In this document: positions 21,825 through 56,430 of the stretch, in pieces
How positions within the stretch are numbered: position 1 is the stretch's first letter
How the letters are laid out: each line of letters begins with the position of its first letter
From: Mobula birostris
Lineage: Eukaryota
Assembly: GCF_030028105.1 (NCBI RefSeq)
Contig: NC_092389.1
Coordinates: 63,508,851-63,572,850, forward strand
DNA length: 64,000 bases
Direction: 5' to 3'
Translations under genes and position numbers: made by a program
Notes under the pieces: model-generated
The model's database searches: none
Seen by the model: the letters and a program-made list of their open reading frames with translations, nothing else
Told to the model about the DNA's origin: nothing

Positions 21825-21894
21825 ATGATGTATCCGATCATCTGGCGGATAGAAGACATTTACTATCCTTTTATTTCTGCCTTTGGAATTCCCG
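21825..21894 (+). CDS. GPR139-like GPCR paralog A, exon 1
   Basis: MMYPIIWRIEDIYYPFISAFGIP, then a phase-1 donor G|GTAAGC. Confidence 0.85.
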
Positions 21895-23268
21895 GTAAGC
21901 CGCGGTGTCAGCTGCCGTGGGTGGATGTTGAAGTTCAATCCCAGTGATATTGATTGATTCTACCGCTGGTTTAAACTCTCACATTCCTGTCCTGGTATTT
22001 CGCATTTCAGGAGCGGGGTTGAAACACCGGGGCTATAGATGCTGGGATTTGGATCTAAAAACAAACCGCTGCAGGAATTCAGCGAATCAGCCAGTTTCTG
22101 TGGGACTGAGCGGGTCAGGCAGCGTTCCTCCAGCGGTTTGTGATTAATAATGGGATGTTCGGCTCTCTGCTTTTGGTCTTGTCGAAGCTGCACTTCACTT
22201 GCAGATATTGTGTTTATACAGCCCGCGGAGCTTATGCCAATTGATCGTCTGCATTTGAATGTGAGTGATTGTCTACTTAGGAGCACCAATCAATCCATCG
22301 ACTGCAGTAACACTTTAGCAACTGTGAGGAGTTCCGGGTTGTAACACGAAACTGTCGTGGATTTTTAGTAAATGTCTGCGATATGACTGAATATAAAGCA
22401 GGTGATGGACAGCACAATGAAGTCGATGCTGAGTCAATTAACACACCCGCCGTGGCGCCTCATAGTTATCAATACTGTGAAATGTTTTATAATATATCTA
22501 CATCTGACACTGTTACAGACATCTGACTGCGGCAGCGAGTTTGAATTCCTCTCCCCGCTTCCCTGTGCCGGATTCAGTGGGAGGCGTCATGTCTGTCTGT
22601 GAGGTTGTGTCAGGCTGCGCTGCATCTGTTGGAATTAGTCAATGTTCTGTTGTAAAGTCAGTGAGGTTCCGGAATAGGAAGCAAACTCGGGAATGCTGGA
22701 AACACGGAGTCCCAAGCAGCTTGTATGGGAAGAGAAACCGGTTAACACTTGTGTCAGGGGTCTCTCGGAGAACAGTTCTGAAAGAGAGATACTTTAACTA
22801 ATTTCCACATATTTTGTTTCGTCTGGATGAGTGTTTCCAGCATTTCCTGTTTTTATTCCGTCTTTCGGCTGTTCTGTCGCTGACAGGGATCTCCATGGAA
22901 GTTGTTGATTGTCTAATGGAAGAATCCCGCCATCAGCGTCCGGATTTATTCATTTCAGCCAGACGAGACGCGGAAGGTGCCGGTAGAAATTGTTCCATCA
23001 AGTATTGGCCCTGAGGAGATAGTTACCCAGATTTAGCTCTCCGCTGTCACTTCACATTGAGGAAATCAGTGAGGGAACCGTATTCAGACCATATTGACTT
23101 TATTTTACTGTGTAAACTCCTTCTCTGTCCCGCCAGTTCTGCGCCCTCTCTCGACGCTCCCGCCGATAAATGTAACAATAAAGTGGAAATATCACAGGAT
23201 CCCCTCAAACTGCCGCATTGGCTTCTGCTCAGTATTTTCTCAACTTGCTGTTCCCGTCTCTCTTCCAG

Positions 23269-24038
23269 CGAACTTGGTGGCGATTGTGATCCTCTCCCGG
23301 GGAAAGTGCGGTCTCTCCAAATGTGTCAGTCGCTACCTGGTGGGAATGGCAGCGGCCGATCTCCTGGTCGTTATCTCCGATCCGCTGCTGAACTGGACTG
23401 CTCTGATTTATTTTCCCCGATCATTCCTGCTCATTACTCCTGTGTGCAGACTCGATCAATGGTTGATTTCTGCGAGCACTGCGGCCTCAGTCTGGCTGAC
23501 TGTCGCTTTCACCGTCGATCGATTGGTGGCGATTTGTTGTGAGAAACTGAAAACAAGATATTGCACCGAGAGAACGGCGGCTGTGGTTGTCGGGACAGTG
23601 AGTGTGCTGGCCTGTTTGGAGACTGTCCCCTCCGGCTTTGTATTTGGGCCTCGAGAAATAATTAATGGTGTTCCCTGCAATTGTGTTTATACACCGAGCT
23701 TCACAAATTCTCCCTCATGGGCGGAATGTGATATGTTTCATCTCATTTTAACCCCTTGTCTCCCATTCTTTCTGATTTTACTGTTCAATATTCTGACTGT
23801 CAGGCGGATTCTAGCGGCCAGTCGAGCCCGCAGGGGGCTCCGGGGACAAAAGAGTGGAGAGAATGACAAGGACCGGGAGATGGAGAACCGACGCAAATCC
23901 ATCGTTTTGCTCTTCAGCATAACCGGTAGTTTCATACTGTTGTGGGGAACACGGGTGATATTTTCTGTCTATAAACGGATTTCAATGGCTTTTTTTTGGC
24001 TAAACCGGATTTTTAAATTCATAAAACATGAAAAATAA
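23269..24038 (+). CDS. GPR139-like GPCR paralog A, exon 2 (about 279 aa spliced; TM7 and helix 8 deleted; possibly a pseudogene)
   Basis: Acceptor tctcttcCAG|CG. Motifs ANLVAIVILSRG, MAAADLL, SVWLTVAFTVDRL and SFILLW. A net 46 codons are missing relative to paralog B. Confidence 0.85.
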
Positions 24039-24134
24039 ATACTGTAAAGTATTACAATTCAGCTGCCTTCATGCTCCCTATTCTCTCCCCCCAGTTGTGT
24101 GTAAATGCAAACAATGCGATGAACAGAGTAACAG

Positions 24135-24380
24135 AACAAACACGAGAGATTCTGTATTCGCTCGAAATACAAAGCAACACGCACAAAATCAGATCCTGGT
24201 GAAGGGTCTCGCCACGAAACGTCGACTGTTTACTCTGTTCCTCACACAGAAAGCTGGAGGAACTCAGCAGGCCAGGCAGCAGCGATGGAGAAGAGTAGAA
24301 TGTCAACTTCTTTATGACGAATCCGCTGATCAGAGTCCTGTTAACTGTTTACTATTTTCCATCTTGTGTGTTGCTTTAGA
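24135..24380. mobile_element. Rearranged Penelope-like repeat cluster with a core-mutated hammerhead
   Basis: CTGGTGA...GAAACGTC at 24196-24223, followed by an inverted copy. Confidence 0.65.
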
Positions 24381-24639
24381 GTGAAATAAAGCTGTTTACT
24401 GCTGATCACTGGCCTCACCAGAGAAATCTCTTTTGCGCCTCACGTCCCGTCCTGTTAAATTGAGGCTTGGGGCGAATCTGCTGCCCGGTTCTGACAAAAC
24501 CGCCTGATCGTGGAGTATATTTTCGTCTCTATCAACCACTCCTGCTCCCATTATAACATTTCCATTCCTGCACCCTGTTATTTTCCTGTTTTACAATTGA
24601 AGACAAAGTCCCGTCACCGTCACTTGTCTCTCTGTGGGA

Positions 24640-24898
24640 GATAGAGAGATGGAGAAAGTGAGCGCGAGCAGGAGGGAGCGCGTGGACTGAGGGCGCGGAC
24701 GCGAGAGAGAATGAGACATCGCGAGGAAAGGGCGCGCGGGAGAGCGCGTGAGGGAGAGTGCGCGAGGGAGAGCGCGCGGGGGAGAGCGCGCGGGGGAGAG
24801 GGCGCGAAGGAGAGCACGTGAGGGACAGGGCGCGAGGAAGATGTGGTGAGAGTGAGCGCGAGGGAATGGGCGTGTGAGAGAGGCAGAGGAAATAGAAT

Positions 24899-24930
<32 letters not shown>

Positions 24931-24970
24931 AGAGAGGGAGAGAGAGAGGGGGGAGAGAGGGAGAGAGAGA
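24640..24970. repeat. GC/purine-rich imperfect repeats and (GA)n
   Basis: Direct reading; paralogous to about 32170-32385. Confidence 0.85.
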
Positions 24971-25299
24971 TGGAAAACAAAGGTGTGACATTCATTGCCG
25001 GATTTGTGGTTCCGCTCTATCACTGCGATTGGCTTCTTCAGAGGATGATAAGCATTATTTTTAATTATATACAGCTACTACTTTAGACATTAGTTATTTT
25101 GTTAGTTCTAAAATTTAAAATCCGACGTGTTTTAACAAATTGCGTGGTTTCAATACGTGTGGAGTCTCCTTTGTTTGCGAATGCATAAGAGAATTGCCTG
25201 AGCTGAATCAAAGAAGAATACAATGAATGAATTTTCAAACAATGTTCATTACAAACGGGTTATTAGAAAGCACATAAAGCACAGGATGGAAATCTATGA

Positions 25300-26245
25300 A
25301 TCACATGTAGCAAACATTCCAGCGGGGGCACAGACAGGAGTATGTGTGCAAATGAGTGAGATTGCAGGATGGTGTGTTACCCTAATCACTCCAGGGCCAA
25401 AGATGTCTCTGAGAATGTACAGGCCATTCTGAAAAGGCCTGGTGAGCAGCCAGAGGTTGTGCTCCTTATTAGAACTAACAACAGAGAGACAAGTTTTTGC
25501 AAAGAGAATGTAAGGAGTTGGGCAGAAAGTTAGGAAAATATGAACTCTCGGGTGGTGATTGCAGGATTCTTTCAGGTGTCACATGCTTGCGAGGTAAGAT
25601 ATGGTAAGTTGGTACACTTAAATGTGTGGTTAACAATCTGGTTCAGGAGACAGGGCATCAGGAACACAGATCATTGGTCCCTCTTCCAGGATAGGTGGGA
25701 CTGGTGTCAGGAGGATGGGTTACAGTGAAGGGAACGTAATATTCTCACAGGGAAGCTTTCTGGAGACACCCTGATGATTTTTATCCTGTGGCATGTGGAG
25801 GGGGTATTGGGATCCAGAGCGACAGCTCAGTAAGTAACATTGAGCGGAAAGTACAGGTGAAGTCGAGGAACCCTAAAGGGAAGTCAAGATGGGCACGTTA
25901 ATGAGCACGGTGGCACCGGAGGGCAGAAGTGAGTTTATTTCAGAGCAGGATGTAGAACAGTGAAATCAGATGTACGTAGCGCCTGGATTAGTACATGGCA
26001 CCGTGCTTCATCCGTTACACAGGTCTGGTTGGGAGAAAGGCAGGACTGGTATCGAAACACTCCAGGATTCATGTGATTCAGACAGTGCAGAGGGAGGTAA
26101 ATGAGGGTGGGGAGCTGCGTTGCTGATCAGGCACAACGTCACAAGATGGAGGTCATCCCGGAGACTCACCCAGTAAATCAATGTGTGTAGAACTCAGGAA
26201 TAAGAAAGGTGCGATCACTGTGACGGGATTATACAGCATGCCTAC
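25300..26245 (+). mobile_element. Old CR1 (ORF1 esterase and start of the endonuclease)
   Basis: SRVVIAG...LNVWL..W.RRQG...DHWSLF; paralogous to about 32830-33770. Confidence 0.7.
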
Positions 26246-26249
26246 CGCA

Positions 26250-27632
26250 TGAACACTGCACTCTCACACTGTAGAGGTACAGAATCAAAGCCACACTCGC
26301 ACACTGTATCGGAGACTGATAGGTACAGAATGAACTCTACACTCTCACACTGTATCCAAGACTGACAAGTACACAATTTTCACCACACTCTCATACTGTA
26401 GCATAGACTGACGGGTACATAATGTACTCCACAGTCTCGCAGTGTATCGGAGACTGACAGGTACAGAATGAACTCTGCACTCTCACACTGCAGCATAGAC
26501 TGACAGGTACAAAATGAACTCCGCACTCTCACACTGTAGCACAGACTGACAGGTACAGAATGAAATCGGCGCTCTCACACTGTATCGGAGACCGACAGGT
26601 ATGGAATGAACTCCACACTCTCACACTGCAGCAAAGACTGGCAGGTAGAGACTGAACTCTGCACTTTCACATTGTAGATTAGACTGATAGGTACAGAATG
26701 ACTCCCACACACTCACACTGTATCGGAGACTGATAGGTACAGAACGAACTCTGCACTCTCCCGCTGTAGCATAGAATAACTGGTACACAATGTACTCCAC
26801 CGTCTCGCACTGTATCGGAGACTGACAGGTACAGAATGAACAGTGCACTCTCACACTGTAGCACAGACTGACAAAGACACAATGAACTCCACACTCTCAC
26901 ATTGTAGCACAGACTGACAGGTACAGAATGAACTTCACACACTCACACTGTATCGGAGACTACAGGTACCTAATGAGCTCCACACCCTCACACTCTAGCA
27001 TAGACTGACAGGTACAGATTTATATCGACACTTTCACTCTGCATCGGAGACGAGCAAGTACAGAGTGAACTCCACACTCTCACAATGTATCCGAGACTGA
27101 CAGGTACGGAATGACCTCCACACGCTCACAATGTAGCTTAGACTGCCAGGTACAGAATGAACCCCACACTCACACACTTTATCGGAGACTGGCAGGTACT
27201 GCACGAACTCTACACTCTCACACTGTAGCATCGACTGACAGGTACACGATGAACTCCACAGTTTCGCACTGTATCGCAGACTGACAGGTACAGAATGAAT
27301 ACTGTACTCTCACACTGCAGCACAGACTGACAAGTACAGAATGAGCCCCACACTCTCATAATGCAGCACAGACTGACAGGTACAGAATGAACCCCACACT
27401 CTCACACTGTAGCATTTACTAACAGGTACAGAATGAATCCCACGCTCTCACACTGTAGCATTTGCTGGCAGGTACAGAATGAACCCCACACTCTCACACT
27501 GTAGCATTTACTAACGGTACAGAATGAACCCCACACTCTCACACTGTAGCATTTACTAACAGGTACAGAATGAATCCCACGCTCTCACACTGTAGCATTT
27601 ACTAACAGGTACAGAATGAACCCCACATTCGC
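26250..27632. repeat. Minisatellite, about 46-47-bp unit, roughly 30 copies
   Basis: Unit approximately actgacaggtacagaatgaactccacactctcacactgtagcatag. Confidence 0.95.
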
Positions 27633-27634
27633 AG

Positions 27635-28140
27635 AATCAGGATCGGAATCAGGGTATTTATCACTGGCGTGTGACGTGCGGTTTGTTCAATTAGTAACAA
27701 CAATTGAATGTAATGCATAATAAAGAAAAAATAGTAATAATAAGGAATATGAGAATAATTATAGTAAATAAAAAAAAGAAAATCAATTACAGTATACGCA
27801 TATTCAATAGATTTAAAAACATGCTAACTTAGAGATACTGTGTATTAAAAGAACTTGAAGTATTGTGCAAAGATTCATTGTCCGTTGAGGAATCGAATGG
27901 TAGAGGGGAAGAATCTGTTCCTTAATCGTTGACTGTGTGTCGTCAGGCTTCTGTACCTCTTACCTGATGGTAGCAGTGGGAAAGGGACATGCCCTGGGTG
28001 TTGGAGGTCCTTAATGAAGGACGCTGCCTTTCTGAGATACTCTTCCTAAAAATGTACTGGCTGCTTTGTGGGCTAGTACCCGAGATGGCGCTGACTAGAT
28101 TTGCAACGTTCTTCAGCTTTTTTCGGTCCTGTGCACAATG
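27635..28140 (-). mobile_element. Rex1-type LINE 3' fragment
   Basis: CAQDRKKLKNVANL..I.G remnant and a short-repeat tail. Confidence 0.65.
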
Positions 28141-29135: not shown

Positions 29136-29560
29136 GACTGAAGGACGGTTCAAAATGGGAAACTGCAGAGACAGAGGTAGGGATCGGTCAGTGTCGCTGG
29201 TTTCCGTTCAGAGATGAATAATTAGCCAACAAAAAGATGAAATCTGTAAGTGTAGCTGCTTCGTGACAAAGCTCAGTCTTTGAAAGTAAATCTACCGGCC
29301 CATTTCCACCAGAGACAATGCTGAGGAAATGACAAAGAATTTTGATGCATTTGTCTCCAATCGCCGCAATATTTACAATAGAGACAATGGTATTGAATTA
29401 AAGTGTTTGTTCAAAGGTCTGTAACTGAGAAAGTTGGTGAGGTGTATACCCACGTCTCCGGAGACAGATCCTCTGTATAAATCAGGGCCGCGTGGAATGC
29501 ATCAGCTGTCTGCCGGATCTGGGAGTACAGGAGCAACACAGATCACAGCTGCTCACTGGA

Positions 29561-29630
29561 ATGGTGTATCCAGTCATCTGGCGAATACAAGGCGTTTACT
29601 ATCCATTTATTTCTGCCTTTGGAATTGCCG
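29561..29630 (+). CDS. GPR139-like GPCR paralog B, exon 1
   Basis: MVYPVIWRIQGVYYPFISAFGIA, then a phase-1 donor G|GTAAGC; TATAAA at 29476. Confidence 0.88.
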
Positions 29631-30926: not shown

Positions 30927-31828
30927 CGAACGTGGTGGCGATTGTGATCCTGTCCCGGGGAAAGTGCGGTCTCTCCAAATGTGTCACTCGCTACCTGGTG
31001 GGAATGGCAGCGGCCGATCTCCTGGTCGTTATCTCCCATCCGCTGCTGAGCTGGACTGCTCCGATTTATTTTCCCCGATCGATCCTGTTCATCACTCCTG
31101 TGTGCAGAGTCATTCTATGGTCGATGAATGCGAGCACTGCGACCTCAGTCTGGCTGACTGTCGCTTTCACCGTCGATCGATTTGTGGCTATTTGCTGTGA
31201 GAAACTGAAAACAAAATATTGCACCGAGAGAACGGCGGCTGTGGTTATCGGGACAGTGAGTGTGCTGGCCTGTTTGGAGACTGTCCCCTGGGGCTTTGTA
31301 TACGGACCTGGACAAATAATTGATGGTGTTCCCAGGGGTTGTGTTCCTACACCGAGCTTCACAAACTCTGCCTCATGGGCGGCATTTGAAATGGTTCACC
31401 TAATTTTAACCCCTTGTGTCCCATTCTTTCTGATGTTGCTGTTCAATATCCTGACGGTCAGGCGGATTCTAGCGGTCAGTCGAGCCCGCAGGGGGCTCCG
31501 GGGACAAAAGAGTGGAGAGAATGACAAGGACCGGGAGATGGAGAATCGACGCAAATCCATTGTTTTGCTCTTCAGCATAACCGGTAGTTTCATACTGTTG
31601 TGGGGAACACGGGTGATATTTTCCATCTATCAACGGATTTCAATGTCTTTTTTCGGTTCTGTCACGGATCCCCGTTACATCACGGGACAGACAGCGGAAA
31701 TGCTGCAGGTTCTCAGTTCCTGCACCAACACGTGTATTTACGCCCTGACTCAGAGCAAATTCCGAGAGGAAATGAAGAATGCGGTGAAATACCCATTGAA
31801 TTGGATTTTGAAACTCATTAAACATTAG
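30927..31828 (+). CDS. GPR139-like GPCR paralog B, exon 2 (intact 7TM, about 323 aa spliced)
   Basis: Acceptor ctctcttcCAG|CG. Motifs MAAADLL, SVWLTVAFTVDRFVAIC, SFILLW and SCTNTCIY..TQSKFR. Confidence 0.93.
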
Positions 31829-38054: not shown

Positions 38055-41000
38055 TCAATAGGCAATAGAAAATAGATGCAGGACTGGGCCATTCGGCCCC
38101 TCCAGCCAGCACCGCCATTCACTGTCATCATGGCTGATCATCCACAATCAGTATCCGGTTCCAGCTTATCCCCATAACCTTTGATTCCGCTATCTTTAAG
38201 AGCTCTGTCCATCTCTTTCTTGAAAATATCCAGAGACTTAGCCTCCACTGCCTTCTGGGGCAAAGCATTCCGCATATCCACTACTCTCTGGGTGAAAAAG
38301 ATTTTCCTCAACTCCGTTCTAAATGGCCTACCCCTAATTCTTAAACTGTGGCCTCTGGTTCTGAACTCACCCATCAGCGGGAACATGCTTCCTGCCTCCA
38401 GCGTGTCCAATCCCTTGATAATCTTATATGTTTCAATAAGATCCCCTCTCAGCCTTCTAAACTCCAGTGTATACAAGACCAGTCGCTCCAATCTTTCAAC
38501 ATATGACAATCCCGCCATCCCGGGAATTAACCTTGTGAAGCTACACTGTGATCCCTCAATAGCAAGAATGTCCTTCCTCAAATTTAGAGACCAAAAGTGC
38601 GCACAATATTCCAGCTGTGGTCTTACCGGGACCCTGTACAGCTGCAGAAGGACCTTTTTGCTCCTATACTCAATTCCCCTTGTTATGAAGGCCAGCATGC
38701 GGTTAGCTTTCTTCACTTCCTGCTGTACCTGCGTGCTTCTTTTCAGTGACTGATGTACAGGAACACTCAGATCTCGTTGTACTTCCTTTTTTCCTAACTT
38801 GACTCCATTTAAATAATAATCTGCCTTCCTGTTCTTACCACCAAAGTGGATAACCTCATATTTATCCACATTAAACTGCATTTGCTATGTATCCGCCCAC
38901 TCACCCAGCCTGTCGAAGTCACCCTGCATTCTCATTACATTCTCCTCACATTTCACACTGCCACTCAGCTTTGTGTCATCTGCAAATTTGCTAATGTTAC
39001 TTTTAATCCTTCCATCCAAATCATTAATGTATATTGTAAACAGCTGCGGTCCCAGCACTGAACCCTGCGGTGCCCCACTGGTCACCGCCTGCCATTCCGA
39101 AAGCGACCCGTTAATCGCTACTCTTTGTCTCTTGTCAGCCAGCCAATTTTCATTCCATGTCAGGACTCTGCCCCCAATACCATGGGTCCTAATTTTGCCC
39201 ACTAATCTCCTATGTTGGACTTTATCAAAGGTTTTCTGAATGTCCAAATACACTATATCCACTGGCCCTCCCTTATCCATTTTCATAGTTACATCCTCAA
39301 AAAATTCCGGAAGATGAGTCAAGCACGATTTCCCCTTCGGAAATCTATGCTGACTGGGACCGATCCTGTTCCTGCATCCAAAAGTGTCGTAATTTCATTT
39401 TTATAATTGACTCCAGCATCTTTCCCACCACTGACATCAGGCTAACCGGTCTATAATTCCCTGTTTTCTCTCGCCCTCCTTTCTTAAAGAGAGGGACAAC
39501 ATTAGCCACCCTCCAATCCACAGGAACTGATCCTCAATCTATTGAACATTAGAAAATGATTACCAATGCGTCCACGATTTCTAAAGTCACCTCCTTAAGT
39601 ACCCTGGGATGCAGACCATCAGGTCCCGGGGACTTACCAGCCTTCAGACCCAACAGTCTATCCAGCACCATTTCCTGCCTAATATAAATTTCCTTCAGTT
39701 CATCCATTACCCGAGGTCCTTTGGCAACTGCAATATCTGGGAGATTGTTTGTGTCTTCCCTTGTTATCCAAAGTACCTGTTCAACTCGTCTGCCGTTTCC
39801 TTGTTCGCCATAATAAATTCACCCGTTTCTGTATTTAAGTGCCCAGTTTTGGTCTTAACTATTTTTTGTTCCCTTTCGCATACCTAAAGAAGCTTTTACT
39901 ATCCTCCTTTATATTCTTGGCTAGGTTACCTTCGTACCTCATTTTTTTTCTCCGCGTATTGCCTTTTTAGTTACCTTCTGTTGCTCTTTAAAAGTTTCCA
40001 AATCCTCCAGCTTCCCACTTATCTTCGCTAAGTTATACTTCTCCTTTATTTTTATACTGTCCATTACTTCCCTTGTCAGCCACGGCCTCCCCTTACTCCC
40101 CTTAGGATCTTTCTTTCTCTTTGGAATGAACTGATTATGCACCTTCGGCATTATTCCCAGAAAAACCTGCCATTGTTGTCCCACTGTCATCCCTGCTAGG
40201 GTGTTGTTCCATTGAACTTTGGCCAGCTCCTCCCTCATAGCACCATAGTTCCCTTTGTTCAACTGTAATACTGACACTTCCGATTTTCCCTTCTCCTTCT
40301 CAAATTGTAGATTAAAGCTTATCATATTATGGTCACTACCTCCTAATGGCTGCTTTACCTCGAGGACCCTGATCAAATCCGGTTCATTGTTCAACACTAA
40401 ATCTAGAATTGCGTTCTCTCTCAAAGGCTCCAGTACAAGCTGTTCCAAGAATCCATCTCGGAGGGGCTCCACAAATTCCCTTTCTTGGGGTCCAGTACCA
40501 ACCTGGTTCCTCCAGTCTACCTGCATGTTGAAATCCCCCATAAAAGCTGTAGCATTACTTTTGCGACATGCCAGTTTTAACTCTTGATTCAACTTACATC
40601 CTATATCCAGACTACTGTTTGGGGGCCTGTAGATAACTCCAATTATGATCTTTCTACCCTTAGAATTTCTCAGCTCCATCCATACTGACTCTACGTCTGC
40701 TGATTCTATGTTCCCCCTCGCAAGGGACTGAATATCATTCCTCACCAACAGAGTCACCCCACCCCCTCTGCCCATCAGTCTGTCCCTTCGATAGGACGTA
40801 TACCTTGAATATTCATTTCCCAGGCCCTGTCCACTTGAAGCCATGTCTCTGTTATTCCCACAACATCATACTGACCAATTTCCAACTGTGCCTCAAGCTT
40901 ATCCACTTTATTTCTTATACTCCGTGCATTCATATACAATACTTTTAATTCAATACTCCCCTCACCTCCCATATCAATTCCTGTTTCGCTTGGCCATACT

Positions 41001-42200
41001 GTACGATCCCTTCTTGAGCTTTCTGCTCTGTTGATTCTGCTGTCGTTCTTAACTTTTCTTATTCTGACTTTCCCTTTATCTCCATCCTTATATTTCCAGT
41101 TCGTCCCCTCCCGCTCCGCCCCCGCCCCACTACTTAGTTTAAACACACCCGTGTTTCAGAGGCAAACCTACCTGCCAGAACGCTGGTGCCCCGCTTATTA
41201 AGGTGCAACCCGTCCCTTTTAAACAATTCATCCTTACCCCGAAACATACCCCAGTGGTCCAAGAATGTAAATCCTTGCTTCCTGCACCAGTTCCTCAGCC
41301 ACACATTCAGATCCATTATCTCCCTGTTCCTGCCCTCTCCAGCACGAGGAACTGGAAGCAAACCGGAGATAAGCACTCTGGAAGTCCTGCTTTTCAGCCT
41401 TCTCCCGAGTTCTCTGAAGTCGCGCTGTAGAATGTCTTTCCTCTTCTTCCCCACGTCAGTTGTGCCGACATGCACCACCACTTCCGGATGTTCACCTTCA
41501 CTCTTGAGGATGTCCTGCAATCGGTCCATGACATCCTGGATCCCGGCACCAGGGAGGCAACACACCATCATTAAATCTCGCCTGTTGCCTCAGAAACCCC
41601 TTTCTGCACCTGTCACTATGGAGTCCCCTACTACCACGGCTCTGCCTGACGTCTCTCCTCGGCTTTGCTTCAGCGCCAGTTGTTGACTGGCTGACCTGAC
41701 CGCCTCTCAGGCTGGCAGTGTCTTCTGTCCCGACAGCTTCCAAGAGGGTGAACCTGTTTACGAGAGGTACATCCCCCGGGGTCTCCTGTACTTCAAACAT
41801 CCTTTCCTTCCTCATCGTCGCTCCTCTTCTCTCTTCCGCTATCCTCGATGTAACGACCTCGCTGTAGGTCCTGTCCAGAAATCTCTCGTTTTCCCGGATG
41901 AAGCTGAGGTCATCCAGTTGCCTCTCCAGTGCTGCAACACGGTCCTTCCGAAGCTGAATCTGGACACATTTTCCGCAGTTGTAGGAGCCAGAGGTACCAT
42001 CAGTGTCCCTGACCTCCTGCATCATGCACGCAGCACACTGAATCAGCCTAGCGGTCATTTCTTCACCACTTCTCACCCTCTCTCCAACTGTGGCGTAGTC
42101 TTCTCCCTCAGCCTCCTCGCCGAAGACTCTCGAGCCAAAGACTCACTTTTCTCACAAGGCCCTTGCCTCGACAGGCCGCTCCCCAGAGCAAACCTTGCTT
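38055..42200 (-). mobile_element. Near full-length CR1 LINE (ORF1 zinc finger/zipper plus SGNH esterase; ORF2 APE plus RT), disrupted
   Basis: ORF1: CAAC...CGKC, leucine zipper, GDSIV, VVVHVGT.D, DGLHL. ORF2: YMNARS, GDFN, SDHN, QGSVLGP, FADD. Several frameshifts and stops; caatag-type 3' tail. Confidence 0.95.
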
Positions 42201-44280: not shown

Positions 44281-45089
44281 TTGATGGCCGTGCATGAGGT
44301 TTCGGGTGAATCCTGAAGGAGCCCTCAAAGGTTCTGACTGTGACTAAGTTACTGCAGAAGTCGGAGAGTTTCGTGAATCTGAAAGTATTTATTCATCACC
44401 ACAAACAGACATTTTCTTAGGGACTCTCTCGGTAGAGTCCCCCAGACAGAAACTTTATCAAGAGTTTAAACAGTTGAGGAGAATGGTAACAGTAGTAATT
44501 CAATACAAGTTCACAAGCTACAATGACAGACTATACTTCAATATTCAGCAAATGATTCTGTTGAAGCACACATTCACATTGGAGAACATTTAATTGATGG
44601 CAGCGACAGACGCAAAAAGCTGGAAGAACTCAGCAGGCCAGGCTGTATGAATAAAAACGAGTACAGTCGCCGTTCCGGGCCGAGAACCTTCGGCTGCACT
44701 GGAAGAAGAGATCAGTCGGAGTTAGAAGGGGACCTGCTGAGTTCCTCCAGCATTTGGTGTGTGTTACTTGGATTTCCAATATCTGCAGATTTTATCTTGC
44801 TTTTTTTTATTTCATAAGGCAGCTCGGAAGGTTCAGGTATCTTTGTCAGAAGAAATAAAAACTCACACAATTAATTCACTAAATTAATCTCAATGTGTCA
44901 TCCCGGGAATTGAACCTGTCTGATGTAATGTGTTTATAAATCATTTAAAAACCTTCATTGTTAAATCTCTTGAAATCTGTCCCTGTGGAGTTGCTAAATG
45001 GTATTAAAAACCCCAGGTATGTGCTGCCTTAACATTTCATTCGGAGAGATCGCCTGTAGCACAGGGGGACAAATCACTGGACAGAGAAA

Positions 45090-45165
45090 ATGTCTGCAAT
45101 GTTGGATCGGTACCGGAGTGTGGAGAAAATATTGTACATGTTGATTGCCGTCATTGGAGTTCCTG
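45090..45165 (+). CDS. GPR139-like GPCR paralog C, exon 1
   Basis: MSAMLDRYRSVEKILYMLIAVIGVP, then a phase-1 donor G|GTGAGT. Confidence 0.85.
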
Positions 45166-45411
45166 GTGAGTGAGCAGAGTAATTCATGTTTGGTGTTTCT
45201 GTTAACCGCTGTGAATCTGGTTGTGTTAATTTGACGATCATCCAACCTGATGAACGTTGCACCAATATCGGTCAGAGATATCGATCCTGTTAATGCAACA
45301 GTCTGATTTTTCATATTTCATGACACGAGGAGCAAAGCCTCCGACTCTCCTCTAACTAACGGGATTGACTCCAACGTTGCTGTGCCTTTAATAACACCTT
45401 CTCCAGATTTA

Positions 45412-46260
45412 TCCCAGTGCTGGGGACAGGCAGCTCTCCAGGAATGTGTGATGAGGGAGGTTTTAATGGAACATTGTCCAGAGTTGTGCCAGTGCTGGGG
45501 ACAGGCAGCTATCCGGGAAGGGATGGGTGGTAGGGTTTTAGCGGGACCTTGTCCCAGTGCAGTGGGCAGGCAGCTCTCCGGGAATGTGTGATGGGGAAGA
45601 TGTCAATGGGTCATTGTCCAGAGTTGTGCCAGTGCTGGGGACAGGCAGCTCTCCGGGAAGGGATGGGTGGCAGGGTTTTAGCGGGACCTTGTCCCAGTGC
45701 AGTGGGCAGGCAGCTCTCCGGGAATGTGTGATGGGGAAGGTGTCAATGGGTCATTGTCCAGAGTTGTGCCAGTGCTGGGGACAGGCAGCTCTCCGGGAAG
45801 GTGCGATGGGGAAGGTTTTAGTGGGACATTGTCCAGAGTTGTAATAGTGCTGGGGACAGACAGGCAGCTCTCTGGGAAGGGATGGGTGGTAGGGTTTTAG
45901 CGGGACCTTGTCCCAGTGAAGTCGGCAGGCAGCTCTCCGGGAATGTGTGATGAGGGAGGTTTTAATGGAACATTGTCCAGAGTTGTAGTAGTACTGGGGA
46001 CAGACAGGCAGCTCTCCGAGAAGGGATGGGTGGTAGTGTTTTAGCGGGACCTTGTCCATGGTTGTCGCAGTGCAGGGGACAGGCAATTCTGTGTGAAGGG
46101 GTGAATAGGCGAGTTTTAATGGGACATTATCTGGAGTTGTGCCAGTGCTGGGGAGCGAGGTTCTTCGGCAAGGTAATACCGGGTCAGTTTAATGACACCT
46201 GTCTGGAGCAGTCCTAGTGCTGGGGACAGGCAGCTCGCCGGGAGGGTGTGACTGGGAGTG
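45412..46260. repeat. Intronic minisatellite with alternating ~75/~65-bp units (140-bp higher-order period)
   Basis: Recurrent ccagtgctggggacaggcagctctccgggaa. Confidence 0.92.
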
Positions 46261-46990: not shown

Positions 46991-47895
46991 TGAATTTAGT
47001 GGCGATTGTGATCCTGTCCCGTGGAAAGTGCGGCCTCTCTACCTGCACCACTCGCTACCTGGTGGCCATGGCAGCGGCCGATCTACTGACTATTGTCATA
47101 GAGGTCTTGTTTCAAATCAATTTGTATTACTTCACGAGGAATGTACTGGACATCACCCCTGTGTGCAGTGTTATCGAAGTACTGACGTTCACAGCCGCAG
47201 ACTGTTCTGTCTGGTTCACCGTCACTTTCACCTTTGATCGGTTTGTCGTCATTTGCTGCCAGAAGCTGAAAACAAAATATTGCACCGGGAAAACTGCGGC
47301 TGTGGTTTTGACAACAACCGGCGTGCTGTTCTGTCTGAAAAACATACCCCGATACTTCACACGGGAACCCTTTGTGATTATCGACAATGTACCGTGGTTC
47401 TGTAATCTCATAGACAATTATTTCACTGACCCCGGGTGGGTAGTATATGACTGGCTCGATACGGTTTTAACTCCGCTCCTCCCTTTCGCTGGGATCCTGC
47501 TGCTCAACGCTCTGACAGCCAGACACATTTTAGTGGCCAGTCGGGTCCGTAAGGGGCTGAAGGGTCAGAGCAAGGGGGAGAACCGCAGTGACCCGGAGAT
47601 GGAGAGCAGGAGGAGATCTGTGGTTTTACTCTTCACCCTCTCCGGCAGCTTCATCCTCCTGTGGATGACACCGGTTGTAAATATCATATATTATCAGGTC
47701 TCAGGAAAGGGATTAGATTTCAATGATTCCGAATGGATCTTTCACTACGTGGGGTTTTTGCTGAGGAATTTCAGCTGCTGCACGAACACATTTATCTACG
47801 TGGTGACTCAGTCGAAATTCAGGGAGCAGTTGATCAGCGCGGTGAAATATCCGGTCACCTCGGTGCTTCAGTTCATGAATAAAGCCGCGTCCTGA
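46991..47895 (+). CDS. GPR139-like GPCR paralog C, exon 2 (intact 7TM, about 326 aa spliced)
   Basis: Long pyrimidine tract then CAG|TG. Motifs NLVAIVILSRGKC, MAAADLL, SVWFTVTFTFDRF and CCTNTFIY..TQSKFR. Confidence 0.93.
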
Positions 47896-50182
47896 GCACA
47901 AGCCAGAGGCGGCCGCTGTGTCTCCAATACGGGCTCCAGCTCCTCACATTTACCGCCTGATCTCCCAGGTATTGTTCACGAGCGGATTATCCCATTGACC
48001 GACAGCTCCGCCACATCAGGACAGTGTGTGCTTGGGAGGGATAAAGCACCATCCAGGAGCCTCCGTCCCTGATTGGCCCAGCCAGATATCAGTCCAAGAT
48101 GTACTCCAGAATGCCACCCAGTCACTGATCTGCTGATATGTCCATCTATTCCCATTCCAGCCCACCAATTTCACAGTCTGACGTTCCCAGAAGACGACAT
48201 GGGGTCTCCTCTGATGCTGATGAACTAATCCAGCATCAATCACACCAGTCTCCTCCTCCTCCCCCCACTGAATGATTGGCCGATTTGAAAAATAGGGCGG
48301 GCTTTGGATAAACGGCGGTTGTCTCTCCAACTTAAAGGCGCATTCCCGCTACTAACTCAACTGGAGTGTGGTGCGCAGAATTGGGAATAAGACCCTCACT
48401 CTTTTTTTTTTCTAATGAAAGCTAAATTACTCCAACAAACCCTACATATTGTAAGTTATGAAATGCAATACCATGAGTTACGTTCGTCCCTCCGCAAGTT
48501 AAGAATGTTTTAAAATTATAGATATCAGCCCCCCAAAGATCGTAATGAAGCCTGCATTTGAGTTATTTCTACATGATATGCTTCACTCTGAAGTAGTAGG
48601 TGTTCAACTGTTTCATAATGACAAAACCTACACGACCCAGAACGATATTTTGCAGCACATAATGTACAATTGAGCACAGTATAGCCAATTCTGAGCCGTA
48701 TCGATATAATTATTTCCGTCCTTTTTCTTACTCCTTTCACCCACAAACTTAACAGTTTTATGTAAATGTGTCTCCCCTTGTGCCCATTAACCCGTCAGTC
48801 TTGCCAGAAGAACCAACCCTACAAACCTCAGCTTCTGATTTGTTCATTGGGAGGTCTTCATCCATTGTTGATTTTTTAACAACACTTGTAACTAAACAGT
48901 CAACCCGCCCATTCCTCTGAGCAGTTCTGTGTGCAGAGACCCACAAGAAGGGGACATAAAGAACAATACTTTGAATATGAAATAATGTTTCATGAGTTCC
49001 CAATAGTAAATCTGACCAACTCCTAGAACGTGTCTTAAGAAGATCATCAAAACCGAAAAAGCGTCTGAACAAATTACAATTTTACATGGACAAAATTCCT
49101 CCACCTACTTTAAGCCTGAAAAGATGGCAATACGTTCTGCTGTATATACTGTAAATGGTTGGCGAGTCCTTTCTTTATCGTCACCTGTTACTCAGGCACA
49201 AAAACAGCCACACCAACATTCCCACTTAAATTATTTTTGATTAGTCTGAATTAATGGTTGACATATCGTAATAATTTCCTTCATACTCTGTTGAATCAAC
49301 AGACTCCCGGGCATAACAGAATCCTTGGACTTTATTGAACTGTGTGACCAAATATTGAATAGTCAGAGGGAGAACAAGGTGGGGTTTCAGAGAATGTGAC
49401 CGTGGGCAACCTTGCGTAATCCAGCAATCCCGCCTTCCCAGCGTGATAAGATCCCAGCACCTAAAAGTAAAAACACTCTTCCTGTGGTGTTTCCAATAGT
49501 CTTCCAACCCAACTTTAATGATCATTTCTTTGCCGCTCAAATTTATCCAGTATGTTAACATCGACTGCCATCTCCATAAATGTAATTGTAATTGTCCCAT
49601 TTCAACCAGTAAAGACAAAACAAGGGACGACCTTACTGCATCACAACACAATCTTGAAGCCTGTGGTTGTATCACACCCGTATAGTTGAATATTAATCTA
49701 ATCCATAAGCCACACAACCATAATCAAGAACAGATCCAATTAAACAGATGAAAATGGTCAAGAGTGATAATCATGTAGCACGCCAGAACACCCACAGACA
49801 CCTGAGAATATTTAATACTCCTTTATATTGTTGTTTTACTGATATGGCGCTTCTGTGTCAGCTTGTTATCGACCCACTTGCCTGGAAATCTTACCACTGA
49901 TATAACTTCAAGAGTTTGACCATATCATTTCAAATCCACTGCAGGTCTATTTATACCATTTGTAAAACAAATAACTTGTGCATTAGCTACTGAAAGCTTA
50001 AATCCTCATCTGTTTGCCTGTGCTTCAAATTTGTTAATTGCCAATTGCATCCAATATACAGTATCATTGAAATTCCTACCTCTAATCCATAAAGCTGCAC
50101 CATCTGAATATAGTGATTAACCCACCCCAGTGGCTATCTCACAGAAAATATCATTAATCATAATATTAAACAATAAAAGGTT

Positions 50183-50218
50183 AGTCCTGACGAAGGGTCT
50201 CGGCCTGAAACGTCGACT
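50183..50218 (+). ncRNA. Minimal type I hammerhead ribozyme, best-preserved copy
   Basis: agtc CTGACGA agg-gtctcgg-cct GAAA cg TC^ gact. Stems I and II pair; stem III is the palindromic ACGT; predicted cleavage after 50214. Confidence 0.72.
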
Positions 50219-50318
50219 GCACCTCTTCCGAGAGATGCTGCCTGGCCCGCTGCGTTCACCAGCAACTTTGATGTGTGTTGCTTGAATTTACAGCATCTGC
50301 AGAATTCCTGCTGTTTGT
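50184..50318 (+). mobile_element. Penelope-like short repeat with an 8-bp TSD
   Basis: TSD aaaggtta at 50176-50183 and 50319-50326. Confidence 0.85.
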
Positions 50319-51599
50319 AAAGGTTACAAATGCTGCCTTATGGCTTCTCAGTCTCTATCTCATAGAAACCCGAATGCAACTGGTCCACCCGTGCCAGCAC
50401 AGACTGTCCAAACATAAAACTCAAAAAATATGCAATCTTTCCCTCAATCTTTTTCATAATTTAATCAAAATTCATCCTTCCATAAATATCGTATGCCTTT
50501 TCAATGTCAGAAAATGCTATTACATCATTATTTAATTGTACTTTCTTAATGTTATCTTCTAAACCAAAAACTGAATCTAATGTCATATTAGCCTTCTGAA
50601 ATCCACATTGATAAAGCTATATATCACCTTTTTTATCCAAAATATATTTCAAACGCTCTATTTATAAAACTGAGAGGTTAACGATAAGGCCTGCAACTGG
50701 AAGTATCAGGCGTAGAGCCTCTAGAATGCCTTTTTTTCAAGACTAAAGCAGCTAGCCTCATCTATAAATGCGATTTTAAAATCTTATTATCTCAACAGAC
50801 TTGTCAGTCAGATGGCTAATCATAAATTAACACATTATCGTTTCCTGGAGACATTTGACCTGCATTAATAATAACCAAACACGAACAGGAGAAAATCTGC
50901 AGATGCTGGAAATTCAAGCAAAATACACAAAATGCTGGAGGAACTCACCAGGTAAGTTTTTTTTTTCTTTTTTTTATACCTACCGCCCTGCAGATGTGCC
51001 TCTGCCAAAACTTCGACTGTACTCTTTTCCAAAGCTACTCCCTGCCTTGCTGAGTTCCTCCAGCATTGTCTGTGTGTTTCCCGAATTGATAATAGCCTTC
51101 TTAAGTTCACAGAAAGAGAATTCTACATCAGTGATACTATCACTACTACGACTGCCTTTCAATATGTTGCACGGGGCGACTGAGGAGAACTCAAGTGCAG
51201 GACACCGGCACGTCGACTGAGTTGGGGATGCTGGCGTAGACGTGAACGTAGAACAGCAAACCGGAGGAATCTTGACAAGGTAACGGGATCTACAGGGATT
51301 GTCTTGAAACTAAACCTGAACTCGAAACTAAATTTAGAACTAACGGTTCTGAGCGAACGAGAGAACGAAGTATCATACAAGGATAGACGAACAAACTGGC
51401 GACCTGTGATTCCGACTCCATCGTACTCATTTCAGTCTCTGATGCAAATCAGATGTACTGTAATTAAGTAAACTAGCAGCAATTGGAAATCTAATGACTG
51501 AAATTAGGGCATAATCAGGGAGAGAGGATTGTTAAAGGGGAACAGCCAAACGGAACCATGACACAATGCGTCAGGGCATTCACAGAGAACCTCATCTCT

Positions 51600-51910
51600 A
51601 CATTTTCATTTCACTGAACAGCAACTCAGCCAGTGATAACAGCGGACAGAGATGGGTCTGAGATACAATAGGCCGGGTGGAAATCTGCGCCATGTTCCGG
51701 CCCCTCTATTCTGCTCCATTGCCATGGTGGAGTCCAGCGAATTACTTCTGTGGGTGGTCGCTGGTCTCGGCGTCCACAAGGACAGGCGTGGTTCCCTTTC
51801 GACGCCTCGGTCAGTCCGTTCCCAGATGTTTGCGGTGGCTGAGGAAAAGTGATTTTGCAAGAACCGAACAAGAAAAACATAACTACAGCTCCCAGAAGGC
51901 CCTGCGGACT
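51600..51910 (+). promoter_or_regulatory. Promoter/first-exon-like cassette, copy 1 (more degenerate)
   Basis: gccATGG at 51724, decayed donor gtcagt at 51810, and actacagctcccagaaggc at 51882-51900. Confidence 0.5.
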
Positions 51911-52159
51911 GCCCTGTTCGACAGTTGCAGCTGATTGAGCGCGGGGCCCGACCGGAGTTGTAGTTCAAATCAAAAGCGGGTGTTTGTGAATTAAGTTCAA
52001 TAGTTTCTGTTTGAACAATTCGTGTCATTTGTATACTATTAGGCAGGAACTTGGGAGGATAAATTTGGAGCAGATTTATTTCGGGAAATGCTAGGCAGAA
52101 ATGTGGCAAGTAGAAGAAAAGAGTTTACCAACGTTTCGAGAAATTTGGTACTGTTAGAA

Positions 52160-54930
52160 TTCTAGAAAATTACAGGGATGGCAGGAAGGAGATGAAGAAT
52201 GAAATTGGGAGGGCTAGAAGTGGCCATGAGTAGGCATTGGCGAGCAGGATTAAGGAAAGCTCCAAGGCATTCGACAAGTATGTGAAGAGCAAGAGGACGA
52301 GCCGTCTGTGAACTTGACCAATCGGGAGCGATTGTGGAAACATGTGCCTGGAGTCCAGAGCCGGTAGCGGAGGTACTTAATGAATACTTTGCTTCAGTAT
52401 TCACCAAGGAAAAGGATCTTGGCAGTTGCCGGGTGCAGCGAGCTGAAACACTTCAGCATATAGAACTTAAGTAAGAGGATGTGCTAACTTTGAAAGGTAC
52501 AACGTTAGATAAGTCGCCGGGATCGGATAGAGCACAGCCCATGTTAATGTGGGAAGCAAAGCAGGAGATTCCTGAGTCTCTGGCAAAGATCTTTACATCA
52601 TAAATAGGGATGGGAAAAGTACCAGAGGATGGGAAGTTTGCAAAGGAGGTTGCAATGTTGGAGGCGAAGCACAGGAGGTTCATGAAGTTGACTCCAGAGA
52701 TGAGGGGGTTAGACTATGAGGTGAGATTGAGTTACCTGCGGCGGTACTTGCTGGAATTCAGAAGATTGATAGGAGATCTTAGAGAAACGTACACAATTAT
52801 GAAAGGGATAGTTAAGATAGAGGTAGGGAAGTTGTTTCCACTGGTAGGTGGTTCTAGAACTCGAGGACATAGCCTTAAGATTCGGAGGAGTAAATTTAGG
52901 ACGGAGCTGAGGATTAACTGCTTTACCCCGAAGTGTGGTAAATCTCTGGAATCCTCTGTCCGATGGAGCAGTGGAGACGAAAACACCGAATATATTTAAG
53001 ACAAGGCTGGATAGAGTTTTGCATAGTTGGGGAATTAAAGTTATGGGGGAAAGGCAGGTAGGTTGAGATGAGTCCATGGTCAGATCAGCCGTGATCTTAC
53101 TGAATGGCTTGATGGGCCTGATCCTGTTTCTAATCTCCTAATGTTCTAAGTGCTGTTCCCTTTTTCAGGAAAGGAAGTAGAGATGACCCGGGAAATTATA
53201 GACCAGTGAATCCTAATTCAGTGGCGGTCAAGTTGTTTGAAAAGCTCCTGAGATGCGGGATTCATAAGCATTTGCAAGAAATAATCTAATTAGTCAGACC
53301 GGCTTTCTCGAGGGTAGGTTATGCCTCACGATCCCGATTGAATTCTTTGAGGGTGTATCAAAACACATTGACGAAGGTAGAGCATTGGGATTGATTTCAA
53401 TGTATATTGATTTCAGTATTTGAAAAGTATCCCCGAGGAAGAATCATTCAGAAGTTAAGGAGGCATGGAACCAAGAAGAACTTGCTTTCTGACACCACAA
53501 TTGCCTTGCCCACAAGGTAAAGTGTGTCTGTAGATAGTTTGTATTCTGCACGGAGAATGATGACCAGTAGTGTTCCGCAGGAATCTGTACTGGGCCCCTC
53601 CCTTTTGGGATAGTTCTAAATGAGCCGGACGGGAAGTAGAAGGGTGGTTTAGTAAGTGTTCTGATAACACAGAAGTTGAGGGTATTGTGGACGGTCTGGT
53701 GGGCTGTCAGACATCACAGAGAGAAATATATAGGATGCAGAACTGGGCTGAGAAATAGCAGATGGATTTCAGTCCATATAACTGTGAAGTGGTTCCTTTC
53801 AGTAGTCAATCGTGAAGAATATAATATTAATGGTAAGACTCTTGGCAGTGTGGATGATCAGGGAGATCTTGGGGTTCCTGTCCATAGGACTCTTGGAGCT
53901 GCTGTGCAAGTTGACACTGTTGTTAAGAAGGCGTATGGTGTGATGACCTTCTTCAGCTGTGGGTTTCAGTTCAAGAGCAGTGAGCTAATGTTACAGCTAT
54001 ATAAGACCTTAGGTAGACCAACTTGGAGACTGTGTACAGTTCTGGTCACCTCACCACAGGAAGGACGTGGATACTATAGAGAGTATTCAAAGAAAATTTA
54101 CAAGGATGGTGCCTGGATTGGAGAGTGTGCCTTCTGAGACTAGGTTGGGTGAACTTGGCCTTTTCTCCTTGGAGCGTCAGAGATTGAGAGCTGACCTGAT
54201 AGAGGTGTACAAGATAATGAAAGGCATTGATCGTGGATCGGATAGGACAAAGAATGGCCAGCGGCTTTTACCCCCCAGGGCTGAAAAAGCTAACACGAGC
54301 GTTATAGTTTTAAGGTTCTTGGAAGTAGGTACAAGGGGATATCGCAGGTAAGATTTTGACACAGAGAGTAGTGGGTGCGTGGAATGCACTGCCAGCGATG
54401 GTGGTCGAAGCGGATACATAGAGCACAGAACAGTACAGCACAGTACAGGCCCTACGGCCCACATTGTTGTGCCGACCCTCAAACCCTGCCTCCCTTATAA
54501 CACCCCCACCTTAAATTTCTCCATCTACCTGTCTAGTAGTCTCTTAAATTTCACTAGTTTATCTGCCTCCACCACTGACTCAGGCAATGTATACCACGCA
54601 CCAACCACTCTCTGAGTCACAAACCTTCCTCTCATATCCCCCTTGAACTTCCCACCCCTTACCTTAAAGCCATATCCCCTTGTATTGAGCAGTGGTGCCC
54701 TGGGGAAGCGGCGCTGGCTATCCACTCTATCTATTCCTCTTATTATCTTTATACCACTATGATGTCTCCTCTCGTCCTCCTTCTCTCCAAAGAGTAAAGC
54801 CCGAGCTCCCTTAATCTCTGATCATAATCCATACACTCTAAACCAGGCAGCATCCTGGTAAATCTCCTCTGTACCCTTTCCAATGCTTCCACATCTTTCC
54901 TATAGTGAAGTGACCAGAACTGGACACAGG
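52160..54930. mobile_element. Nested CR1 fragments (+ strand to about 54420; - strand copy about 54418-54930)
   Basis: NEYFASVF, LEFRRLIGDL.ETY, IESIQRKFTRMVPGL, VQFWSLHYRKDVEALERVQRRFTRMLPGL. Confidence 0.85.
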
Positions 54931-54974
54931 CTGATAACTCGGAGGCTGGAGCTGAGCGACAGACTGGGAACTGG

Positions 54975-55148
54975 ACTGCAGATGCTGGAAATTCAAGCAA
55001 CACACACACACAATATGCTGGTGGAAAGCAGCTGGCCAGGCAGGATCTACAGGAAGTGCAGACGAAGGGTCTCGACCCGAAACGTCGACTGTACTTCTTC
55101 CTATAGATGCTGCCTGGCCTGCTGCGTTCACCAGCATTTTGTGTGTGT
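54975..55148. mobile_element. Penelope-like inverted cassette
   Basis: An antisense copy is fused to a sense copy that starts within the hammerhead core (gacgaagggtctcgacccgaaacgtcgac). Confidence 0.75.
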
Positions 55149-55531
55149 CACTTTAAATGACGCAAGTTTTCCATTCTTCGGGCACATTTCTCCATTTATC
55201 AAATAAATCCCTGGAATGGTCAAGTGAAATAGCAGAGAATTCGACCCACCTACGATAAAAACCATGTTGGCTTCATTTATTTCGTTGACCCAGATTACGG
55301 TATTAATCCAAAATTTGGAATACAATTTCTGCCAATGCAGCAATCACATCAGCGCCTTTTTGTTGTTTCTTGCATCACATAATTACATTTATTTTGCTGA
55401 TTTTACTGAAACGGTAAAACTACTAACATTCGTTCACCTGGCTGCAGAAATATAGGCATATTTACCAAACGTAAAAAAAAATATTGAAGTCTATTTCAAC
55501 TTCCGTCAACGCTTACAATTTGATTTACGTT

Positions 55532-56430
55532 TTACCTGCAGAAGCGACCGTTTAACGTAACCAGACGTTTCAATCCACCCTTTACCTCCTCCCTGAATTT
55601 CCTCTGTGACAGAGTGTAGATACACGTGTTGGTGCAGGTACTCAGAAACTGCAACATGAACCCAAACTGTTGTAGGATGTACGATGGGGTATTCAAATAT
55701 TTGTCTTTGTAAGAGTAATTCTGAACTTGCCAGTTCATAGTATACACAATAAAGGGGATCCACAACAATATGAAATTGGCTGATAGAGCGAACAACAAAA
55801 TTATTGATTTTCTCCGGTTCTCCACCTCTGGATCATTCCTTTTCTCTCTGCTGTTCCTGAGCCCCCGGCGAACTCTGTTTGCCGCGATGATATGGCTGAC
55901 TGTTAAAGCATTAAAAAGCAGAATCAAACAGATCGGCAATAAAGGCGTCGTGATAGTATTGAATAACTGGTGCGCTTTCCACGCTGGTAACGTAAGGAAA
56001 TCCATTGTCAAAATGCAGCGCCAGGGAATGTTGTCAATGATAATGATAGGTTCTACCGCAAAGTATAATGGGATATCCTTCGCACAACTCCATAAACACA
56101 CAATTACTATCGCAATAGTCGCTGTCCTCTCGGTGCAGTATCGCTCCCGCAGCTTTTGACTGCAGATTGCAATACAGCGATCGAACGTGAAAGCCACCGT
56201 GAGCCAAACAGAACAGTCCATGGCTGTGACCCTCAGGACAAGCGTCACGGCGCAAATCGGGGTAATGAGCAATGGAAACGCATAATTATAAATATTATTG
56301 ATCTCAGAGAGTACAACAGCAATAATAACACCCATTAAATCAGCTGCTGCCATTCCCACCAGGTAACGGGAGATGCATTTAGAGAGTCCGCAGTTTCCCA
56401 GAGACAAGATCACAATCGCCACTAAATTAA
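55532..56430 (-). CDS. GPR139-like GPCR paralog D, exon 2 (open through TM7; exon 1 not found)
   Basis: Acceptor ttccttgCAG|TTAATTTAGTG (phase 1). Motifs GMAAADLM, SVWLTVAFTFDRC, NFILLWIP and TCTNTCIY..SQRKFR. Confidence 0.9.

Follow-up and report, generated by a model that had tools for sequence, protein, structure and literature searches.

GPR139 and GPR142 are vertebrate class A orphan G protein-coupled receptors (GPCRs) that are activated by Trp/Phe and by some peptides. In nematodes and molluscs, chemoreceptors have expanded from the FMRFamide/Srw-like receptor group. The window analyzed here is a 64,000-nucleotide stretch of the Mobula birostris genome (NC_092389.1, positions 63,508,851 to 63,572,850). 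It lies on contig C24 of the 4.01-Gb genome and carries four receptor genes (A, B, C, and D) that an initial annotation had read as a tandem array of GPR139-like receptors, a candidate lineage-specific chemosensory repertoire expanded from an amino acid sensor family. These four genes are a small sample of a huge two-exon class A GPCR family that has more than 2,000 loci in this one ray genome.

Cartilaginous fishes are reported to have 20-62 olfactory genes, and the vertebrate maximum for olfactory receptors (ORs) is given as ~2,300-2,400 (PMC10869828). The large noses of these fishes have been explained as discrimination traded for sensitivity (PMC10869828, PMC10116579). A "relative paucity" of GPCRs in cartilaginous fishes is stated in a genome paper (PMC8455134). 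A ray genome with more than 1,000 intact receptors of diversified pocket overturns this claim of paucity, whatever the tissue in which the receptors act.

Size and Turnover of the Family

Family members were counted with two independent codon-degenerate motifs, one in transmembrane helix (TM) 3 and one in TM7, each with a control. The TM3 motif has 2,006 genomic matches (control, 0), and the TM7 motif has 2,315 (control, 85). Within the part of the genome that both lists cover, the TM7 motif is present in 40 of 60 TM3 loci. Extrapolation from these loci, which form small clusters on contigs C1-C6, suggests a rough total of 2,800-4,200 loci. Searches with C, B, and D yielded at least 131, 132, and 132 scored matches from 5,102, 5,159, and 5,085 first-look candidates, with identities of 82-100%, 84-100%, and 65-100%, respectively. 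The scored matches lie mostly at C24:54-67.7 Mb and on C33, C34, and C17.

Many of the loci are intact. A full-length main exon was found in 24 of 40 loci taken in even steps through the first 100 listed (20 by an automatic intactness filter, and L182, L192, L200, and L219 on inspection), and the other 16 are broken. Across the window plus four blocks of 200 kb each, 11 of 15 loci with a motif and 3 of 8 loci without one are intact. Pooling the motif loci (35 of 55 intact) gives ~990-1,530 intact main exons (95% range), and unplaced scaffolds, near-identical segments, and haplotype or assembly duplicates may inflate these copy counts. Among the 130 unique intact exons, 88 could be paired with an exon 1 (many loci do not reach far enough upstream), and none of the 88 exon 1 peptides contains a sequon.

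The family is therefore clustered and shows births and deaths, as is expected of a chemosensory repertoire. A clustered birth-and-death expansion had been proposed at the outset, together with a genome-wide count of paralogs. That count gave thousands of loci rather than a few, and with broken copies and a diversifying pocket (see below), the expansion is far larger than the one proposed. An OR motif has one match genome-wide, which is a weak comparison since fish ORs vary.

The Four Receptor Genes of the Window

Genes were called from six-frame translation, with the Pfam 7tm_1 cut-off of 30.5 bits as the domain test. Four class A GPCR frames lie within 35 kb, at 23.1-24.0, 30.8-31.8, and 46.9-47.9 kb on the forward strand and at 55.5-56.4 kb on the reverse strand. 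Genes A to D score 65-84 bits, which places all four in class A as first annotated. Only 7tm_1 is above its cut-off in the window genes, and none of the olfactory receptor Pfam families is matched. The array is clustered as described but not fully tandem, with D on the opposite strand.

All four genes have a phase-1 CAG acceptor two bases 5' of the TM1 Asn (Asn1.50). The coding exon 1 of A, B, and C is 70-76 nt long, ends in G-x-P/A before a GT donor (Table 1), and encodes a very short N-terminus without a sequon; the introns that follow are 1374, 1296, and 1825 nt, respectively. The motifs AAAD, SVWxTVxFTxDR, and N-T-x-I-Y, which are of the GPR139 type, are present. Both the splice pattern and the motifs agree with the initial annotation. 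The AlphaFold model of B (predicted local distance difference test, pLDDT, 89.8) has seven TM helices, a hairpin in extracellular loop (ECL) 2, and helix 8.

B and C are intact two-exon genes. Gene A, already recognized as a damaged copy, has a net 138-nt in-frame deletion relative to its paralog L053 that removes ECL3, TM7, and helix 8. The deletion junction is present in no other fetched locus, and A is likely a pseudogene. A and B are 84% identical, and the remaining pairs are ~50% identical. These values agree with the earlier description of A and B as a recent duplicate pair and of C and D as distant paralogs, but the closest copies are found elsewhere: A is 95% identical to L053, B is 96-97% identical to other copies, and both C and D have copies with 98-100% identity elsewhere on the same contig. 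Four other copies are 100% identical to D.

In three near-identical paralogs of D, exon 1 sits 1.28 kb upstream, past a 24-bp satellite. Exon 1 of D is not visible in the window, where the satellite is followed by 200 N and where L063:1-1020 has no match. Either there is an assembly gap at this position or D has lost its first exon.

A Diversified Pocket and a Conserved Signalling Core

Selection was analyzed in 141 unique intact exons, with 35 pocket positions that are standard for class A. D2.50, D3.49, R3.50, N5.58, W6.48, and N7.49 are invariant in the 141 exons, and C3.25 is found in 140. Y7.53 belongs with D2.50, D-R3.50, N5.58, W6.48, and N7.49 to a near-invariant signalling set. The ratio of nonsynonymous to synonymous substitution (dN/dS; parsimony, short branches) is 0.71 in the pocket and 0.70 in the ECLs, and 0.31 in the other TM positions and 0.25 in the intracellular loops (ICLs).

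Models M1a and M2a were compared with self-written code and scaled fixed branch lengths in the subfamilies of B (31 rows), C (18 rows), and D (11 rows). The likelihood ratio test (LRT) statistics are 162, 70, and 28, respectively, with 5-9% of sites at an omega of 3.6-4.7. Of the sites with a posterior above 0.9, 23 of 31 fall in the pocket or ECLs, which comprise 80 of 299 columns, and none falls in an ICL or helix 8. The pocket and outer-loop residues show signs of positive selection, and the intracellular loops are under purifying selection. A diversifying pocket combined with a conserved G-protein face is a further property expected of a chemosensory repertoire, found here under a model that does not include recombination.

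Relation to GPR139, GPR142, and Other Receptors

The best PDB match is human GPR139 (E = 3e-13; runner-up, 5e-8). Ray orthologs of GPR139 and GPR142 lie on C11 and C28, respectively, with one match each, in contrast to the thousands of family loci, and the family is 24-31% identical to ray GPR139. The phase-1 acceptor before N1.50 is common to the family, ray GPR139, ray GPR142, and two orphan receptors, L119 (coelacanth XP_005988539 type) and L100 (bichir XP_028654722 type). The AAAD, W-x-T-V-x-x-T-x-D-R, and Pro-less NxxxY motifs are likewise shared with GPR139/GPR142.

A careful tree of 39 rows (LG+C20, rooted on 15 invertebrate rows) was built after exclusion of 51 of the 90 rows of a quick tree, and the two trees agree. 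The family forms a single clade (100/100). Its sisters are the single-copy orphans L119 and L100 (98/97), followed by two amphioxus proteins (98/92). The other chordate branch is made up of GPR139/142, and the chordates stand apart from the protostome receptors, including the FMRFamide receptors (100/99). Constraining the family and GPR139/142 to an exclusive clade is weakly rejected (approximately unbiased test, p-AU 0.03). The intron before N1.50, the Pro-less TM7 motif, and the tree (100/99) place the family within a wider GPR139-related chordate clade. Within this clade, the family appears to comprise neither orthologs nor in-paralogs of GPR139/142. Because the tree puts the family on a separate branch, the database name "GPR139" would be a best-hit label only, attached to a separate unnamed lineage.

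The ligand residues of GPR139 are D2.61, E3.32, R6.51, and N7.39 (7x38), as described in PMC12775434. These sites are among the most variable positions of the family. R6.51 is present in 32 of 141 exons, and D2.61, E3.32, and N7.39 are outside the six commonest residues at their positions. GPR139 also has an Asp where the family has C3.25. Taken together, the tree and the hypervariable ligand residues speak against the initial placement within GPR139/142 and against an expansion of an amino acid sensor family.

The closest relatives are the two orphans, each with one match among 30 loci fetched, unlike the family. In the L119 type, exon 1 is as short as in the family and ends in G-I-P. This type is found in sharks and bony fishes as well as in amphibians, turtles, and squamates, and no mammal or bird is named among the 120 matches listed. 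In the ray, the two closest kin of the family, both of them unnamed single-copy class A orphans, lie at L248 (G000:C18:55.206-55.209 Mb) and L249 (G000:C3:115.344-115.345 Mb). Both carry the automatic label "probable GPR139", and L248 is the one conserved from sharks to turtles and squamates.

The protostome FMRFamide/MIP/sex-peptide receptor group (Srw-like) is the outgroup of the chordate clade, and the nearest non-chordate ESM Atlas clusters carry Srw. It is a separate lineage, and the expansion of the family is confined to elasmobranch names among the matches listed. In a fold search with the model of B, peptide receptors lead, and GPR139 ranks 33 of the best 50.

Spread across Species and Novelty

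At E<=0.001, gene B matches 2,082 protein clusters. Among the 120 listed, 119 are named, and all of these are from a shark or ray; most are called "probable G-protein coupled receptor 139", and the nearest named proteins are from Mobula. A divergent member matches 1,001 clusters, and 120 of 120 listed are elasmobranch. No chimaera or bony-fish member is found among these 240 matches (the best 120 of 2,082 and 120 of 1,001, one unnamed). The family is thus common to sharks and rays and not confined to Mobula birostris. The expansion is lineage-specific to the extent that the matches listed carry elasmobranch names; it is not specific to this species.

This is a real and large receptor family, new but of a known functional kind, and apparently undescribed in a literature search that reached few subscription journals. 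In the portions available, the main text of the catshark sensory-genome paper PMC11979771 has no "GPR" or "receptor 139", that of the manta and devil ray genome preprint 10.64898/2026.10.27.761883 has no GPCR term, and the GPR139 review PMC12208981 has no "shark" or "cartilag". The family proteins sit in databases under a misleading automatic name.

Promoters and Proposed Role

Promoters were compared in 14 mutually non-aligning groups (71 promoters), taking the highest-scoring EBF-type palindrome within 100 nt. In most of these, a TATA-like box lies 64-92 nt upstream of the start codon. In 9 of the 14 groups, the best O/E(EBF)-like site starts 20-27 nt before this box (shuffled controls: mean 1.7, maximum 6 in 1000; intron control: 2). 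By a plain score threshold, the O/E signal is weak (3/11 at score 7, p=0.014; 1/11 at 7.5, p=0.12). The promoter of L119 has no O/E-like site at the family offset. Homeodomain sites are the usual partner of O/E sites in OR promoters. Mouse OR promoters are enriched for O/E, homeodomain, and TATA sites (PMC3247239). The promoter pattern of the ray family is a hint towards sensory neurons, not proof.

We estimate a probability of about 0.5 that the family is a chemosensory receptor repertoire, olfactory or otherwise external, and olfactory sensory neurons would be its most likely location. By inference, it resembles the OR, TAAR, V1R/ORA, and V2R/OlfC families in its clustered birth-and-death, its variable pocket with a fixed signalling face, and its putative O/E and TATA promoter elements. 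It is unrelated to them in sequence, has an intron inside TM1, and lacks an N-terminal sequon. The olfactory placement draws on how large the family is, on the promoter pattern, and on catshark receptor data that leave a gap. In catshark, the seven probes with signal sum to ~12.6 neurons per mm lamella (Table 1 of PMC10116579), and the olfactory neurons are described as an almost continuous monolayer, all with Go and TRPC2 (PMC10116579). The known catshark receptors would leave most olfactory neurons unexplained.

A stronger form of this proposal, which we advance tentatively and would not bet on at even odds, is that sharks and rays smell mainly through a fifth, undescribed vertebrate olfactory family that was recruited from an orphan relative of GPR139/neuropeptide receptors. 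Its 1,000-1,500+ intact genes in this ray would make a mammal-sized repertoire and would fill the neurons unexplained by known receptors. If the family is olfactory, the paradox of a large nose with few receptors is removed, and an independent origin of a vertebrate smell-receptor family is added.

In a chemosensory repertoire of this kind, the TM pocket of each intact paralog, beneath the disulfide-tied ECL2, would accept a ligand of its own, either a small water-borne molecule or a short peptide. All paralogs would use one G-protein route, which may be Go/PLC/TRPC2 if they are expressed in olfactory neurons of the catshark type. O/E factors would switch the paralogs on sparsely in sensory neurons, and new specificities would arise from duplication and pocket substitution. 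Eight contig sets, guessed to be RNA and with coded tissue, cover the intron and exon of gene C and of L016, and no exon 1-exon 2 joint is among those listed, a pattern that favors neither expression nor silence.

Several observations weigh against a chemosensory role in olfactory neurons. The 20-27 nt range was set after 11 of the 14 promoter groups had been viewed, and one of the three groups added fits it. For homeodomain sites, no clear enrichment is seen (6 of 14 groups; shuffle mean, 3.1). EBF factors are active in other neurons and in B cells as well, EBF1 being a B-cell factor. The self-written codon test can yield too high an LRT where paralogs undergo gene conversion, but gene conversion by itself would not put positive sites in the pocket. 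The catshark neurons are all Go/TRPC2 microvillous cells, the cell type that usually carries V2Rs (PMC10116579), and probe sensitivity and further V2Rs could also account for the catshark neuron gap. Lastly, zinc-finger genes are mixed with the receptors on C17 and C24, and NACHT (NLR) genes on C17, a mixture that fits an immune role or passive co-amplification.

Copy number grows by segmental duplication alongside other families, and therefore both an immune and a passenger explanation stay alive. The former, which we judge unlikely though well ahead of the remaining alternatives, holds that the family is a surveillance repertoire of immune or mast-like cells, skin or gut epithelium, or body sensory neurons, and that it detects microbial or damage-derived peptides as FPR/MRGPR receptors do. 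The same selection pattern would be expected, and EBF1 would suit it as a B-cell factor. The fold neighbors of B are peptide receptors, the invertebrate kin include FMRFamide receptors, and MAS1 and its relatives are reported as absent from cartilaginous fishes (PMC8455134). The NACHT genes among the receptors on C17 would fit as well. They lie in one of the two C17 blocks, however, and a motif-level screen of the other C17 block, the C24 and C33 blocks, and the window found no NACHT frames. A set of more than 1,000 intact genes is also on the scale of an OR family and far above the FPR or MRGPR families.

Passive amplification is improbable. In this explanation, an older family of modest size is functional, and most of the several thousand copies found in this lineage are little-expressed passengers of segmental duplication in unstable zinc-finger/NLR regions. 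The B-C-D arrangement does recur seven more times along C24 (in 6 of the 7, C and D are ~8.5 kb apart), and the identical copies of D, the 16 broken loci of 40, the interleaved zinc-finger arrays, and the possible haplotype or assembly duplicates all fit. Yet the short recent branches keep a dN/dS of 0.25-0.31 in the ICLs and non-pocket TM positions, with pocket sites in excess. In the C33 block, no zinc fingers accompany the receptors, and other sharks and rays have many intact paralogs. Least probable of all is a multiplied set of GPR139-like receptors that sense aromatic amino acids or endogenous neuropeptides and act in brain, gut, or gonad. GPR139 is the best solved relative and has the intron position and Pro-less TM7 motif in common with the family, W6.48 is invariant, and H, D, or N is found at 5.42. 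Against this, true GPR139 and GPR142 exist separately, their ligand residues are not conserved in the family, and a single fixed ligand leaves the positive selection in the pocket unexplained.

Features and Neighborhood of the Window

The features of the window are collected in Table 1.

Table 1. Receptor genes, putative promoter elements, and associated features (window coordinates).
Feature	Position	Strand	Remarks
O/E(EBF)-like palindrome, gene A, putative	21719..21728	+	21 nt before TATA box
TATA box, gene A, putative	21740..21746	+	
Gene A coding exon 1	21825..21894	+	23 codons + 1 nt; ends G-I-P, GT donor
Gene A exon 2	23269..24038	+	product 279 aa, six TM helices only; deletion near 23996; likely pseudogene
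O/E(EBF)-like palindrome, gene B, putative	29455..29464	+	21 nt before TATA box
TATA box, gene B, putative	29476..29482	+	
Gene B coding exon 1	29561..29630	+	ends G-I-A, GT donor
Gene B exon 2	30927..31828	+	intact 323-aa class A GPCR
O/E(EBF)-like site, gene C, putative	44980..44989	+	22 nt before TATA-like box (45002)
Gene C coding exon 1	45090..45165	+	ends G-V-P, GT donor
Gene C exon 2	46991..47895	+	intact 326-aa class A GPCR
Gene D exon 2	55532..56430	-	intact frame, 298 codons after phase-1 acceptor
24-bp satellite in D intron	56588..57015	.	common to D and its near-identical paralogs
C2H2 zinc-finger array exon	2..1237	-	~15 fingers; part of co-amplified neighborhood

The zinc-finger array has close copies in the C24 and C17 blocks (L177, L233, and L237). 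The NACHT genes number two, with exons at L127:5629-7425 (+) and L135:2753-4630 (-), between receptor genes. Near-identical copies of a B-like subfamily (L096-L098, L101, and L112-L114) are spread in large numbers across C17:3-31 Mb, the contig with the NLR and zinc-finger genes. At G000:C24:56.11-56.63 Mb, identical-scoring receptor matches occur three times with ~183-kb spacing, which is either a very recent triplication or an assembly artefact.

A transposon or repeat origin of the family was considered and rejected, given the 7TM fold, the purifying selection, and the conserved splice sites. Fragments resembling the reverse transcriptase/endonuclease of long interspersed nuclear elements were seen by eye between the receptors, at 3650-6236, 38141-42142, 53640-55147, and 61151-63628. 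Minisatellites are present at 26275-27627 (46 bp) and 45402-46154 (~75 bp, C intron), in addition to the 24-bp repeat of the D intron. At 58040-58130 (+), a CpG-rich short exon with an ATG and a GT donor has the appearance of a first exon, belonging to a further gene arranged head-to-head with D. It is followed at 58202 by what we take to be a ZNF143/Staf-like motif.

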